Source: Microgenomates group bacterium Gr01-1014_5
Lineage (GTDB): Bacteria > Patescibacteriota > Microgenomatia > UBA8517 > UBA10165
Length of the DNA stretch: 64,000 nt
Direction: 5' to 3'
Assembly (NCBI GenBank): GCA_007376395.1
Contig: VMGE01000004.1
Span: 6,431-70,430, forward strand
Each line of letters starts with the position of its first letter. The first letter of the stretch is position 1. Of the stretch, positions 17,275 to 57,704 are shown piece by piece. The notes beneath the pieces were generated by a model. It was not told the DNA's origin. It ran no database searches and worked only from the letters and a program-made list of their open reading frames with translations. Both the position numbers and the translations under genes were made by a program.

Positions 17275-17341
17275 CTAGAGACTAGAGACTGGAGACTAGA
17301 GACTGGAGACTAGAGACTGGAGACTGGAGATTAGAGGCTAG
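17275..17341 (+). repeat. about 9.5 tandem copies of the heptamer CTAGAGA/CTGGAGA, running from the stop codon of one gene to the ATG of the next
   Basis: Read directly: CTAGAGACTAGAGACTGGAGACTAGAGACTGGAGACTAGAGACTGGAGACTGGAGATTAGAGGCTAG. Confidence 0.85.
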
Positions 17342-21031: not shown

Positions 21032-21484
21032 ATGCAACCGACTGCCAAAAAACCTAAAGATAAAAAAAGAATATACACACAAAATCCTTTCGAGGAACCT
21101 CTAAAGATTTTAGAAGAGGCAGGAAAACAACTTTCTGGAGATTATTCTCCTGCGAACCAGCAAGAACAGCAAACAGAAAATACATCAGCGGTAGATCATG
21201 CTGCAATTAAAAAACGCGAACAGAGACATTATCAGACTTTCCAAAACGAACTAATCGAAATTAGAAACATTCAAAAAGAGAGAGAACAAGAGCGTCAACA
21301 ATTGAGGGTGCAGGAAGAACGGCAAAAACAGATGCAAGAAGAACAGAAAAAGAAAAAAGAACAAGAAGGGCTAATTGAACCAATTACCCGCAAGGCAAGA
21401 GGAATGCTCGGGGGTGCAGGGGCAATGCTGGGGGTTAAAAGAAAACAGCGAAGCACAGAATTGGTAAAAACGCCGAGCAACTAG
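21032..21484 (+). CDS. hypothetical Lys/Glu/Gln-rich coiled-coil protein
   Basis: Low-complexity ORF. Its stop codon TAG is the first unit of the downstream heptamer repeat. Confidence 0.35.
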   Translation: MQPTAKKPKDKKRIYTQNPFEEPLKILEEAGKQLSGDYSPANQQEQQTENTSAVDHAAIKKREQRHYQTFQNELIEIRNIQKEREQERQQLRVQEERQKQMQEEQKKKKEQEGLIEPITRKARGMLGGAGAMLGVKRKQRSTELVKTPSN

Positions 21485-21514
21485 AGACTAGAGATTGGAG
21501 GTTAGAGGCTAGAC
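21481..21514 (+). repeat. tandem heptamers CTAGAGA CTAGAGA TTGGAGG TTAGAGG CTAGAC abutting the ATG at 21515
   Basis: Read directly. Confidence 0.8.
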
Positions 21515-21874
21515 ATGGCAGTTGATTTTACAGAGCTAAGAGTTTGGCAGATTGCACATAAACTAACTATCGATATTTATCTTCTTACAAAGAAGTTCCC
21601 TAAAGAAGAAATCTACGGACTAATTAGCCAACTTAGGAGGGCGGCGGTTTCTGTGGAAGCTAATATTGCAGAAAGTCATGGACGGTTTCATTCGGCTGAT
21701 ATTGTCAGATTTTTACTAGATTCTCGAGGGTCTATATATGAAGTTCAAAGCCTACTAATGATATCCCAAGACGTGGGCTATTGCACGAGTCACAGTACAG
21801 ACGCTTTGTTGAAACAGTATTCAGATCTTGCGAAACAAGTTAACAGTTTAATTAGATACAAAAGAAACAATTAA
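21515..21874 (+). CDS. four-helix-bundle protein (23S rRNA intervening-sequence protein family)
   Basis: WQIAHKLTIDIYLLTKKFPKEEIYGLISQLRRAAVSVEANIAES is the family signature. Confidence 0.65.
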   Translation: MAVDFTELRVWQIAHKLTIDIYLLTKKFPKEEIYGLISQLRRAAVSVEANIAESHGRFHSADIVRFLLDSRGSIYEVQSLLMISQDVGYCTSHSTDALLKQYSDLAKQVNSLIRYKRNN

Positions 21875-24680: not shown

Positions 24681-25040
24681 ATGGACAATTTAGAATTTGC
24701 AAAAAGGCTAGAAGTAAGGACAGAACGATTTGCCGATGACGTGTATGTTCTTTGTCGTGCGTTGGAGAAAGTAGATCTAGTTGTAAAAGAAATTATATCT
24801 CAATTAGTAAGGTCAGCAGGTTCTGTAGGATCAAATTACATAGAGGCGAACGAAAGTTTAAGCAGGAAAGACTTTTTTCATAGGATCAGGATATGTCGGA
24901 AAGAGAGCAGAGAATCTCGTTTCTGGCTTAAGAGACTATTAATTTTGTTACCAGAGAAACACACTAAAGAAGTCAATCGCTTAATAAGTGAATCTTCAGA
25001 ATTCATTTTGATTTTTTCTAAAATATTAACTAAAGCATAA
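24681..25040 (+). CDS. four-helix-bundle protein (second copy, same family as 21515..21874)
   Basis: LVRSAGSVGSNYIEANESLSRKDFFHRIRICRKESRESRFWL is the family signature. Confidence 0.65.
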   Translation: MDNLEFAKRLEVRTERFADDVYVLCRALEKVDLVVKEIISQLVRSAGSVGSNYIEANESLSRKDFFHRIRICRKESRESRFWLKRLLILLPEKHTKEVNRLISESSEFILIFSKILTKA

Positions 25041-44760: not shown

Positions 44761-45069
44761 ATGAGTCTAAAAGTTGGGATAGTAGGTTTGCCAAATGTTG
44801 GGAAAAGCACGTTGTTTAACGCACTCTTAAAAAAACAACAGGCATATGTTGCGAATTTTCCGTTTGCTACCATTGAGCCGAATGTCGGTATTGTTCCGGT
44901 TCCTGACGCAAGGCTGGATGAATTGGCGCGAGTTGTCATGGCCTCTGAAAACATGGGAAGCGTACCACCTAAAGTTCCCGCAACCGTAGAGTTTGTTGAT
45001 ATCGCAGGCCTAATTGCCGGCGCACACAAAGGCGAAGGTTTGGGTAATAAATTTTTAACTCTAAATTAA
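44761..45069 (+). pseudogene. ychF: 5' fragment of a divergent ychF copy (encodes residues 1-98)
   Basis: [23 protein letters not shown]...[14 protein letters not shown] is about 80-85% nucleotide-identical to the start of full-length ychF at 47862. Similarity ends near 45055, followed by TLN*. Confidence 0.75.
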
Positions 45070-47861: not shown

Positions 47862-48866
47862 ATGTCATTAAAAGTAGGAATAGTCGGTTTGCCAAATGTA
47901 GGGAAAAGCACATTGTTTAACGCTCTTCTAAAAAGGCAACAGGCATATGTTGCGAATTTTCCGTTTGCTACCATTGAGCCGAATGTAGGCATTGTTCCGG
48001 TTCCAGACAGTCGGCTCGACAAGCTCGCCGAGGTGATTAGTGATTCTTGGATAGTGAATGGTGAGAAGAAAAAACCACCCATTGTCCCCGCAACTGTAGA
48101 ATTTGTAGATATCGCAGGGTTAATTGCCGGAGCTTCCAAGGGCGAAGGGCTGGGGAATAAGTTCTTATCCCATATCCGCGAAGTTGACGCAATTTGCCAT
48201 GTTATCCGGCATTTCAAAGATAAAAATATTATTCAAACAGGAACTAATCCCAAAGAGGACTTTGAGATTGTCAAAACCGAATTAGATTTGGCAGACTATG
48301 AAATGGAAGAACAGCACAAAGAAAGAAATAAAGGAAAGGTTGACGAAAACCTACCCCTCTTTAAGAAGAAACCGATTTTAGTTGTGCTTAACGTTGACGA
48401 AGAGGATTTAATAAACGCAAAGAATATCGAGGCTGGGTTTGCGACTTCTGTGGGGCTTAATAAAGAGCAGGTGATTGCAATTTGTGCTAAAACTGAAGCG
48501 GAATTGGCGGATCTTTCAGAAGACGAACAAAAGGAATATTTAAGTGACTTGCGAATTGACAAACCGGGTTTGGAAAGGCTGGCGCAAAGCGCTTTTACCA
48601 CCCTTGGTTTAATTACGTTTTTAACCGCAGGAGAAAAGGAAGTGCGGGCTTGGACCATTCGGCGAGGTGCGACGGCTCTAGAGGCTTCCGGGGAAATCCA
48701 CACCGACTTTATGGCTAAGTTTATTAAAGCGGAAGTTGTGAAGTATGAGGATTTTGTAAATTCAGGAGGATGGAAGAAATCCCGCGATGTCGGTAAAGCC
48801 AGACTTGAAGGCAGAGATTATATCGTCCAAGACGGTGATGTGGTTGAATTTAAGATTGGCGCTTAG
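47862..48866 (+). CDS. ychF: ribosome-binding ATPase YchF (Obg-family GTPase)
   Basis: G1 [16 protein letters not shown]-terminal TGS domain (KARLEGRDYIVQDGDVVEF). Confidence 0.9.
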   Translation: MSLKVGIVGLPNVGKSTLFNALLKRQQAYVANFPFATIEPNVGIVPVPDSRLDKLAEVISDSWIVNGEKKKPPIVPATVEFVDIAGLIAGASKGEGLGNKFLSHIREVDAICHVIRHFKDKNIIQTGTNPKEDFEIVKTELDLADYEMEEQHKERNKGKVDENLPLFKKKPILVVLNVDEEDLINAKNIEAGFATSVGLNKEQVIAICAKTEAELADLSEDEQKEYLSDLRIDKPGLERLAQSAFTTLGLITFLTAGEKEVRAWTIRRGATALEASGEIHTDFMAKFIKAEVVKYEDFVNSGGWKKSRDVGKARLEGRDYIVQDGDVVEFKIGA

Positions 48867-52629: not shown

Positions 52630-53132
52630 TGGCGTCACGTTCTTTAAACAAAGTAATACTCATTGGTAATTTAACCCGGGATCCGGAATTGCGCTACACT
52701 CCTCAAGGAACCGCTGTTTGTACTTTCGGCCTTGCTACAAACCGTTCTTGGAAAACTGAAGATGGAACACAAAGGGAACAAACCGAATTCCACACAATTG
52801 TTACCTGGACCAGGCTTGCAGAAATTGTAGCTGAGTATTTAACCAAAGGTAAGCAGGCATACGTTGAAGGTCGTCTTTCAACCCGCGAGTGGGAAGGTCA
52901 AGATGGACAAAAAAGGCGCACGACAGAAATTATAGCCACAGAAGTTATTTTCTTAGGGTCACCGGGCGCGCGACCTGAGTCAATAGACGTTCCAGAGGAC
53001 TTGGGGATTAACGAGCAAAAGCCAGAAACAGAAACAGAGCCAGATACAGAGAAAGGGACAAAAGAAAAACCCGCAACTAAAACCAAAACTGAAGAAACAC
53101 CAGTTGTTGAAGGGGAAGATATTCCTTTCTAG
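52629..53132 (+). CDS. ssb: single-stranded DNA-binding protein
   Basis: LNKVILIGNLTRDPELRYTPQG OB fold. C-terminal acidic DIPF. Confidence 0.9.
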   Translation: MASRSLNKVILIGNLTRDPELRYTPQGTAVCTFGLATNRSWKTEDGTQREQTEFHTIVTWTRLAEIVAEYLTKGKQAYVEGRLSTREWEGQDGQKRRTTEIIATEVIFLGSPGARPESIDVPEDLGINEQKPETETEPDTEKGTKEKPATKTKTEETPVVEGEDIPF

Positions 53133-53203
53133 AGGCTAGAGAGCTGGAGGCTAGAGGTTAGATTCTAGCCTCTAATCTCTAATTATCTAGTAATCTAATT
53201 TTT
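53133..53203 (+). repeat. CTAGAGA/CTGGAGG heptamer-related repeat plus 8-bp-stem hairpin (AGGCTAGA..TCTAGCCT) and TAATCT repeats abutting the rpsR ATG
   Basis: Read directly. Confidence 0.7.
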
Positions 53204-56522: not shown

Positions 56523-57221
56523 TTAAATTCCTTTTGTCGCTTCGACAATCTTATCCAAACTTCCGTCGACAACTGCTTCTAAATTGCCGAATGATTTTCC
56601 CAGTCTGTGGTCTGTTACCCTGTCTTGAGGAAAATTATAGGTACGGATTTTTTCCGCACGGTCTCCTGAGCCGATTGCTGATCTAAAATCCTTAACTTGA
56701 GCATTTCTTTCTTCCTCCCGGCGCTGATAAAGTTTTGCGCGCAAAAGTTCGAGGGCAATTTGGCGGTTTGCTTCCTGAAAACGTTCTGTTTGCGAGGTAA
56801 CAATTACTCCAGATGGCTTGTGGGTAAGCCTGACAGCGGTAGAGACCTTGTTAACGTTTTGTCCCCCTGAGCCGCCTGAGCGGTAAAACTGCCACTCTAA
56901 ATCTCCGGGGTTGATTTGTAATTGCGATTGAGAAATCTGCGGAACGACGGCTATGGTCGCGGTTGAGGTGTGGACGCGTCCTCTTTTTTCCGTTTGAGGG
57001 ATTCTTTGTACCCTGTGTACTCCGCCTTCGTGTTTTAGGGCTTCAAAACATCCCTGACCGCTGATCATCAAAGTTCCCTCATCAACTTGGGTTGTTTTCC
57101 AGTTTTTCTTAACCGCGAACCTGGCATACATGCGCAAAAGGTCAGAAGCCCAAATTTTAGCTTCGTCGCCGCCAGCCGCACCGCGGACTTCTAAGTATAA
57201 AGTTGAGTTTTGACTATCCAT
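56523..57221 (-). CDS. prfA: class-I peptide chain release factor lacking N-terminal domain 1 (RF1-type PxT motif)
   Basis: Begins at LEVRGAAGGDEA, which aligns to about residue 110 of E. coli RF1. Tripeptide motif PQT (RF1 P-x-T). GGQ motif in RSGGSGGQNVNKV. C-terminal RTYNFPQDRVTDHR. Only 51 nt separate it from upstream rpmE. Confidence 0.7.
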   Translation of the reverse strand: MDSQNSTLYLEVRGAAGGDEAKIWASDLLRMYARFAVKKNWKTTQVDEGTLMISGQGCFEALKHEGGVHRVQRIPQTEKRGRVHTSTATIAVVPQISQSQLQINPGDLEWQFYRSGGSGGQNVNKVSTAVRLTHKPSGVIVTSQTERFQEANRQIALELLRAKLYQRREEERNAQVKDFRSAIGSGDRAEKIRTYNFPQDRVTDHRLGKSFGNLEAVVDGSLDKIVEATKGI

Positions 57222-57272
57222 ATGGTGGGGTAGGTAATGGGTTGTGGGTAGTTGGGTGAGCCCAACAACTAA

Positions 57273-57599
57273 CTACTTACTCCCCACTACCGTTTTACGT
57301 ACTTCTTCTAGCGAGGTTGGCCGTGACATTTCTTCCTCGACCTTTTCTTTTCGTTTTGCCGCCCTGCGCTCTTTTTTGGAAAGACCTTCTAATTTATATG
57401 CATTCTCTTGTTTTGCTTTAAATTTATCTACTCGTCCTGCTGTATCTACAAAACGCATTTGCCCTGTGTAGAAAGGGTGACAGGCAGAACAAACCTCGAC
57501 ATGAATATTTTCCATGGTCGAGCCTGTGATAAAGGTGTTGCCGCAGGTGCAAACGACTTTTGCCGCGGGAAACCACGCTGGATGAATTTGTGCTTTCAT
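57273..57599 (-). CDS. rpmE: 50S ribosomal protein L31 with Lys/Glu-rich C-terminal extension
   Basis: [10 protein letters not shown]...[30 protein letters not shown]...[10 protein letters not shown]. Confidence 0.85.
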
Positions 57600-57640
57600 A
57601 ATTAGAAACTGGAGACTAGATACTAGAGGCTAGGTCCAGT
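57600..57640 (+). repeat. AGACTAG-type heptamers (AAACTGG AGACTAG ATACTAG AGGCTAG) abutting the rpmE start on the opposite strand
   Basis: Read directly. Same unit family as 17275-17341. Confidence 0.7.
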
Positions 57641-57704
57641 AATTTATTATACCCTAAATTTAGTTTAGCTTCAAGACCGTTATTTAATGTCTAGCCTCAA
57701 AACT

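Follow-up and report, generated by a model that had tools for sequence, protein, structure and literature searches.

The window analysed here is a 64-kilobase (kb) stretch of contig VMGE01000004.1 (assembly GCA_007376395.1), from an uncultured groundwater bacterium of the Patescibacteria; its DNA uses the standard genetic code and has a G+C content of 41%. On the minus strand it carries rpmE, the gene for ribosomal protein L31, followed immediately by a gene for a class-I release factor. The open reading frame (ORF) of this second gene, 56523–57221(−), begins with ATG, ends with TAA and encodes 232 amino acids (aa). Judged by its sequence, it is very probably the orthologous and working prfA of a Blackburnbacteria genome (Microgenomates, Patescibacteria), encoding a release factor 1 (RF1) that has lost domain 1 and kept domains 2–4. 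The locus contains the following features, all on the minus strand:

57646–57674 (−), candidate sigma-70-like promoter for rpmE-prfA, TTGAAG-17-TATAAT, from a consensus scan (10 of 12 positions match)
57273–57599 (−), rpmE, ribosomal protein L31 (Zn-ribbon), 108 aa, with its TAG stop at 57273–57275 (Pfam Ribosomal_L31 1–63; NCBIfam L31)
57222–57272 (−), rpmE-prfA spacer of 51 nucleotides (nt), 17 sense codons in the rpmE frame
56523–57221 (−), prfA, RF1 with domains 2, 3 and 4 only (Pfam, NCBIfam and structure alignment)
57162–57173 (−), G17-G18-D19-E20 helix tip, aligned with GGDEA/GGEEA of solved RF1s
56991–56999 (−), P75-Q76-T77, RF1-type PxT tripeptide 'anticodon', read from the sequence
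56859–56867 (−), G119-G120-Q121, GGQ peptidyl-tRNA hydrolysis motif, read from the sequence

Profile and structure-based alignments agree on where the protein begins. The Pfam PCRF model (PF03462) matches only from profile position 99 to 194 of 194 (110 bits) and the RF-1 domain model (PF00472) is matched in full (3–116 of 116, 131 bits), so it is the N-terminal domain that is missing. Likewise, the two NCBIfam models for RF1 (TIGR00019/NF001859) align from positions 103 of 347 (to 338) and 111 of 361, with 305 and 297 bits, respectively. In an alignment with the sequences of solved structures, residue 7 of the window protein falls on residue 110 of Escherichia coli RF1 and the match extends to residue 342. 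A preliminary description of this DNA had placed the start at the equivalent of E. coli residues 107–110 and had proposed that domain 1 is absent with no room for it upstream; the alignments bear out both points, with models that start at ∼103–111 and an rpmE gene that ends just 51 nt away. Neither RF1 model reaches its equivalog cut-off (305 versus 400 bits and 297 versus 423 bits), the shortfall expected because ∼105 residues are missing. Among the NCBIfam families, the protein scores highest as RF1 (305 bits), followed by RF2 (212 bits), PrfH (70 bits) and ArfB (55 bits).

The motifs needed for stop-codon reading and peptide release are intact. The PQT tripeptide and an unbroken GGQ, both named in the preliminary description, lie at residues 75–77 and 119–121. 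Together with the conserved GGDE tip, which we take from established RF1 structures to read U1 of the stop codon, and the higher RF1 than RF2 score, they uphold its assignment as an RF1-type factor. An AlphaFold model (predicted local distance difference test, pLDDT, 70) matches structures of free, compact RF1 and RF2 (1RQ0, 2IHR and 1GQE) with TMq of 0.66–0.69. The protein has the PCRF and RF-1 domains, the decoding residues, the GGQ motif and the rpmE-prfA position of an RF1, and departs from the family in domain 1 and in its equivalog score.

This short form of RF1 is conserved and under purifying selection. Three contigs, assembled independently of one another (two in ENA, one in Logan; one spans 124 kb), encode an identical protein with the same neighbours. 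Among 5.8 billion proteins searched, the 120 top-ranking homolog clusters are all 227–268 aa long and come from Blackburnbacteria, Woesebacteria and other Patescibacteria; the closest is 98% identical to the window protein, and some truncated homologs belong to contigs 786 kb and 926 kb long. The databases name these homologs 'PCRF domain-containing' or 'release factor-like'. Across 42 family members with 66–90% identity, 70 columns are invariant and cover every catalytic and decoding motif, including G17, G18, E20, P75, T77, H84–T89 and G119–Q121; D19 is conserved in at least 90% of members, and the middle residue of PxT varies freely (Q, A, D, E, N, V, S, T or K). A local assembly error that hides an upstream N-terminal domain, which the preliminary description had allowed for, does not fit these data: three assemblies give the same sequence and homologs throughout the clade are equally short.

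Gene order identifies the truncated gene as prfA. We compared 80 loci of ∼20 kb each from GTDB species representatives (L001–L080). At almost every locus, rpmE immediately precedes the RF1 gene, whether the RF1 is full-length, shortened or truncated, and the truncated gene therefore occupies the ancestral prfA position. The order hisS-EamA-rpmE-prfA is kept in Blackburnbacteria relatives; the neighbours of the window prfA are EamA, rpmE, a winged-helix regulator and a trypsin-like protease. In the window, 40 ORFs end in TAA, 20 in TAG and nine in TGA, so that TAG closes 29% of ORFs; at the loci with a truncated RF1 it closes 23%, the same share as at loci with a shortened RF1. With TAG at the end of 23–29% of genes, RF1 activity is needed, and no second release factor gene was found in the window or in the 80 loci. 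Because of its position beside rpmE, its clade-wide conservation and this use of TAG, the window protein is most likely the housekeeping RF1. It would then be active and the only RF1 of the cell.

The alternative that survives best, though we consider it improbable, is that the gene encodes a specialised paralog, a PrfH-like protein or rescue factor, and that a full-length prfA elsewhere performs housekeeping termination. PrfH does likewise lack domain 1 (PMC1586002, PMC6514570), and the window spans 64 kb rather than the whole genome. However, the PrfH model gives 70 bits against a cut-off of 167, far below the 305 bits of RF1, with a match confined to residues 91–195; the PxT motif and decoding residues are canonical and invariant, and no RtcB gene lies next to prfA. 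The gene also sits where full-length RF1 sits in other lineages, every one of the best 120 homologs is truncated, and the loci hold no further release factor gene. The PrfH-like paralog raised in the preliminary description is thus disfavoured. Other class-I families fit no better: the ArfB model (NF006718) reaches 55 bits against a cut-off of 100 and covers residues 98–134 only, and the RF2 model (TIGR00020) reaches 212 bits against 370, with PQT in place of SPF.

Less probable still is a domain 1 provided in trans, whether encoded by its own small gene (a split prfA) or replaced in function by the C-terminal extension of L31. The latter has some appeal, as L31 is encoded immediately upstream and carries an additional helical-looking, K/E-rich tail of ∼40 aa, which is kept across Microgenomates loci. 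Yet when the window and 25 truncated loci were translated in six frames and searched with a profile built from 56 domain-1 segments, no match appeared at E ≤ 10, and we rejected a split prfA on this basis. We likewise set aside the idea that the L31 extension is what remains of domain 1 or stands in for it: the extension is equally present at loci whose RF1 retains part of domain 1. Moreover, L31 sits at the bridge between the central protuberance and the head of the ribosome, distant from the L11 stalk. L31 is also listed among the ribosomal proteins that are generally enlarged in the candidate phyla radiation (CPR) (Tsurumaki et al., bioRxiv 10.1101/2022.01.07.475337). We looked for rplK, for co-variation with L11, and found it in none of the retrieved loci. 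As a separate matter of annotation, gene callers often choose an internal methionine for L31, which yields an 80-aa protein without the first cysteine pair of the zinc ribbon.

The spacer between rpmE and prfA invites a third explanation. The coordinates confirm the earlier observation that the TAG of rpmE is followed by 17 sense codons and then by the prfA ATG, all in one frame. Since UAG is the stop specific to RF1, read-through of this codon could yield an L31-linker-RF1 fusion, either as an ancestral relic or as an autoregulatory sensor of RF1 shortage. The shared frame also occurs at 29 of the 55 loci with rpmE upstream, more than the one third expected (24 of these 29 without an intervening stop), and at ∼40% of the 19 truncated-RF1 loci with rpmE upstream. 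We nonetheless regard read-through as highly unlikely. In the Blackburnbacteria relatives the spacers measure −1, 22, 36, 36 and 49 nt, compared with 51 nt in the window, and in GCA_030649455.1 rpmE and prfA overlap by 8 nt; the spacer sequences are unrelated and the rpmE stop is TAA or TAG. Across the 55 loci, rpmE genes that end in TAG are in the prfA frame no more often than those that end in TAA. The excess of shared frames is structured by clade, and spacers within a clade often differ by multiples of three. Such retention of frame is expected, because stops and starts shift by point mutation, and the loci are consequently not independent. A fused query of L31, linker and RF1 returned no protein with both L31 and release factor domains: its best 120 matches are at most 268 aa long and none contains PF01197. 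Read-through or fusion ancestry, which the preliminary description had entertained, therefore finds no counterpart in relatives, where frame, spacer length and rpmE stop all vary. Its other suggestion, coincidence, fits spacers that range from −8 to 51 nt among close relatives with unrelated sequence, and the shared frame is just that, without function.

Within the spacer itself ATG, GTG and TTG are all absent, and prfA therefore cannot start before the ATG at 57221; its 51 nt contain no Shine-Dalgarno sequence and, in the consensus scan, no sigma-70-like promoter. The two genes are probably co-transcribed from the promoter candidate at 57646–57674. A functional RNA in the spacer was considered and rejected; the fold z-score of −1.45 is not significant and the sequence is not conserved in relatives.

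Weakest of all is the notion that the gene is a decaying pseudogene or an error of assembly or annotation. This notion could cite the metagenomic source and the score under the RF1 cut-off and is already effectively refuted by the three independent assemblies, hundreds of intact homologs of equal length, 70 invariant columns and an rpmE gene so close that a missing exon has no space. Artefacts of another kind do exist in public data. Two top matches of ∼480 aa in the search of cluster representatives (P0121 and P0126) are RF1s with an exact internal tandem duplication of domains 2–3; these are probably assembly artefacts and not fusions.

The truncation extends well beyond the window. RF1 sequences in the survey fall into three states, defined by where the PCRF match begins and by the number of residues before domain 2:

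Full: PCRF 1–194, ∼105–115 residues before domain 2; non-CPR bacteria and Peribacteria/Peregrinibacteria
Shortened (domain 1 of ∼75 aa): PCRF from ∼37–42, ∼65–85 residues; Levy-, Curtiss- and Saccharibacteria, Parcubacteria and WWE3
None: PCRF from ∼98–101, at most 14 residues; the window, Woese-, Blackburn- and Gottesmanbacteria, and a Parcubacteria-like group
Separate Parcubacteria-like truncated group within the last state: L023, L030, L041, L054 and L067

A few sequences carry 27–59 N-terminal residues, and every truncation stops at one and the same domain boundary. Related genomes thus share the truncation that the preliminary description had noticed in a single gene. Several 50%-identity clusters of complete truncated RF1 (e.g. 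P0124, P0125 and P0128) were also recovered with HMMER from 1.84 billion cluster representatives. The C-terminal tail past the last conserved helix is 1–10 aa long in truncated forms versus 13–28 aa in the others. In a neighbor-joining tree of domains 2–4, the truncated RF1s turn up in two distinct parts, surrounded in each by RF1s that have domain 1. The tree carries no support values, and the claim is limited accordingly: domain 1 of RF1 appears to have been lost at least twice. No description of a truncated RF1 in CPR bacteria or Patescibacteria was found in the open-access literature. In the account of Burroughs and Aravind (2019, PMC6514570), PrfH is the release factor without domain 1 and RF1 and RF2 are uniformly three-part, and a study of the small CPR ribosome makes no mention of release factors (Tsurumaki et al. 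2022, bioRxiv 10.1101/2022.01.07.475337).

RF2 of the same lineages retains domain 1. To find it, we scanned metagenomes for DNA encoding GGQNVNK and then searched with a profile of six RF2s. The Microgenomates-type RF2 genes recovered carry the SPF motif and CPR-like GGQ domains. The best 120 clusters, one of them named Woesebacteria, are all 334–380 aa long, although a profile of full-length RF2s would rank any truncated RF2 lower. They match PCRF over positions 2–194 and score 447 bits with the RF2 model (cut-off 370). One assembly, GCA_030649455.1, holds both a 357-aa RF2 (P0367, contig JAUSKI010000015.1) and a 233-aa truncated RF1 (P0076, contig JAUSKI010000006.1) in EamA-rpmE-prfA context; the pairing rests on the common assembly accession. 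Because the RF2s of the lineage, including the one from this assembly, keep domain 1, its loss appears to be specific to RF1. The preliminary description had seen a domain-1-less housekeeping RF1 as part of a minimal translation apparatus. The housekeeping role stands as most likely, and a minimal termination system does not, since RF2 is complete.

The RF2 genes also offered observations on their surroundings and on domain 3. In the Microgenomates, prfB belongs to a conserved block of prfB, small ORFs, ftsE, ftsX, an M23 peptidase and tsaE/tsaD (L211–L216); each prfB ORF is continuous in one frame, and nothing in it suggests a +1 frameshift site. The GGQ domains of Microgenomates RF1 and RF2 are 57–74% identical, whereas domains 2 and 4 share 22–38%. 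Comparison of the window domain 3 (56859–56990) with the RF2s L104, L118, L184, P0361 and P0367 reveals a common motif, LEWQF(Y/F)R..GGQNVNKVSTAVRL.HKP, whose variants co-vary between RF1 and RF2 (LEWQF versus IEFEAF, and SQGGQ). This pattern suggests that prfA and prfB have undergone gene conversion or concerted evolution.

A plausible course of action for the window protein can be assembled from its motifs, whose decoding roles we take by homology from solved termination complexes. prfA would be co-transcribed with rpmE from the promoter upstream of rpmE and translated from its own ATG, in a genome where most genes have no Shine-Dalgarno sequence. The protein would enter the A site at UAA and UAG, with the GGDE tip at U1 and with A2 and the third base read by PQT and the following HTSTAT strand. 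GGQ would then be placed in the peptidyl-transferase centre and release the peptide. Without domain 1, there would be no docking to the L11 stalk and no recycling by RF3, which we infer to be absent from the lineage; RF1 would presumably dissociate from the ribosome unaided or during recycling.

Experimental precedent exists in E. coli. According to the account of Mora et al. (2003) given in PMC1586002, E. coli RF1 without domain 1 retains codon-specific release in vitro and functions in vivo, with loss of the RF3 interaction. RF3 is missing from 72 of 191 bacterial genomes surveyed, including Bacillus and Mycobacterium, both of which keep domain 1 (PMC1780047). The absence of RF3 alone therefore cannot explain the loss of domain 1.

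Several points weigh against a domain-1-less housekeeping RF1. A second, full-length prfA elsewhere in the genome, though improbable, would lie beyond the window and the sampled loci that the release factor searches cover. The activity and expression of the protein are predicted from its gene, and its score lies under the NCBI equivalog cut-off, though this is expected for a protein short of ∼105 residues. The AlphaFold model is of moderate confidence. GCA_030649455.1 is a metagenome bin, in which the RF1 and RF2 contigs can be mis-binned. Finally, E. coli RF1 was reported to be inactive on ribosomes without L11 (Tate's reviewer comment, PMC1586002), and loss of the domain that contacts L11 may therefore be costly unless the ribosome has compensated.

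Some further observations concern the window at large. An intergenic motif, TAGAGGCTAG, occurs 13 times with at most one mismatch, compared with 2.9 occurrences expected (sites include 17276–17341, 21482–21512, 53130–53174, 57624–57633 and 57691–57700). Two sites have it in both orientations, among them an inverted pair that flanks the rpmE promoter candidate; a dispersed repeat and an operator are both conceivable. Most predicted genes of the window have no Shine-Dalgarno sequence, and in many TATAAT stands 7–12 nt before the ATG, a pattern suggestive of mRNAs with no leader or a very short one. Two copies of the 5′ end of ychF are present (44768–45057 and 47869–48167, ∼3.1 kb apart, 80–88% identity); the copies bracket an HNH-like ORF, a Fic-family gene and one further ORF, and the region looks like an insertion with partial gene duplication. 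Two paralogous 119-aa ORFs lie at 21515–21874 and 24681–25040, and the 124-aa homolog in a relative has a Pfam match to 23S_rRNA_IVP, a four-helix bundle.

In evolutionary terms, we lean towards the reading that in Blackburn-, Woese- and Gottesmanbacteria, and independently in some Parcubacteria-like lineages, a domain-1-less RF1 is the only RF1 and terminates all UAG-ending and part of the UAA-ending genes, while RF2 keeps the domain. If so, these bacteria constitute a natural separation-of-function experiment, in which domain 1, docking to the L11 stalk and coupling to RF3 are dispensable in vivo for RF1 and not for RF2. In most other Patescibacteria, the reduction of domain 1 to ∼75 aa would then be an intermediate step in this erosion. 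Almost all bacteria and organelles have domain 1 in both RF1 and RF2, even where RF3 is missing (PMC1780047). The truncated proteins provide natural material for the contributions of domain 1 to L11 docking, accuracy and recycling rate, and a compact RF1 for in vitro systems. They also carry a warning for annotation: with sub-cut-off scores and vague names, pipelines may call RF1 missing. Translation termination would thus join the reduced ribosome-associated features of CPR bacteria. Overall, a known protein occurs here in a natural variant form that extends across a clade, of moderate interest for termination research and of practical relevance to annotation.

Comparison with known factors places the window protein closest to canonical RF1. 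Its domains 2–4 are 42–55% identical to those of E. coli, Thermus thermophilus and Thermotoga maritima (1RQ0) RF1, with which it shares PxT, GGQ and GGxE, a gene next to rpmE as in many bacteria, and a predicted UAA/UAG specificity. It differs in lacking the ∼105-aa N-terminal helical domain 1, which interacts with RF3 and the L11 stalk, and in its shorter C-terminal tail (1–10 versus 13–28 aa). The engineered E. coli RF1 and RF2 without domain 1 (Mora et al. 2003, Mol Microbiol 50:1467, as cited in PMC1586002) likewise consist of domains 2–4 only, and both retain codon-specific release in vitro; they are laboratory deletions, with slow growth, in an organism with RF3 and a full RF2. Unlike these deletions, the truncation in Patescibacteria is natural, fixed in clades and under purifying selection. 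PrfH/RFH (TIGR03072), another class-I release factor homolog, has GGQ and is naturally devoid of domain 1. However, PrfH has an altered codon-recognition region, an RtcB partner, a sporadic, horizontal distribution and a role in rescue or repair, whereas the window protein has canonical RF1 decoding residues and no RtcB neighbour. The rescue factors ArfB, ICT1 and C12orf65 share only the GGQ domain; they lack codon-recognition domains and carry a basic C-terminal tail, in contrast to the complete domains 2 and 4 found here. Finally, the similarity of domain 3 between Microgenomates RF1 and RF2 fits the paralog exchange described by Ishikawa et al. (2015, PMC4530459); such conversion concerns domain 3 only and leaves the loss of domain 1 from RF1, next to an RF2 that keeps it, to an explanation of its own.

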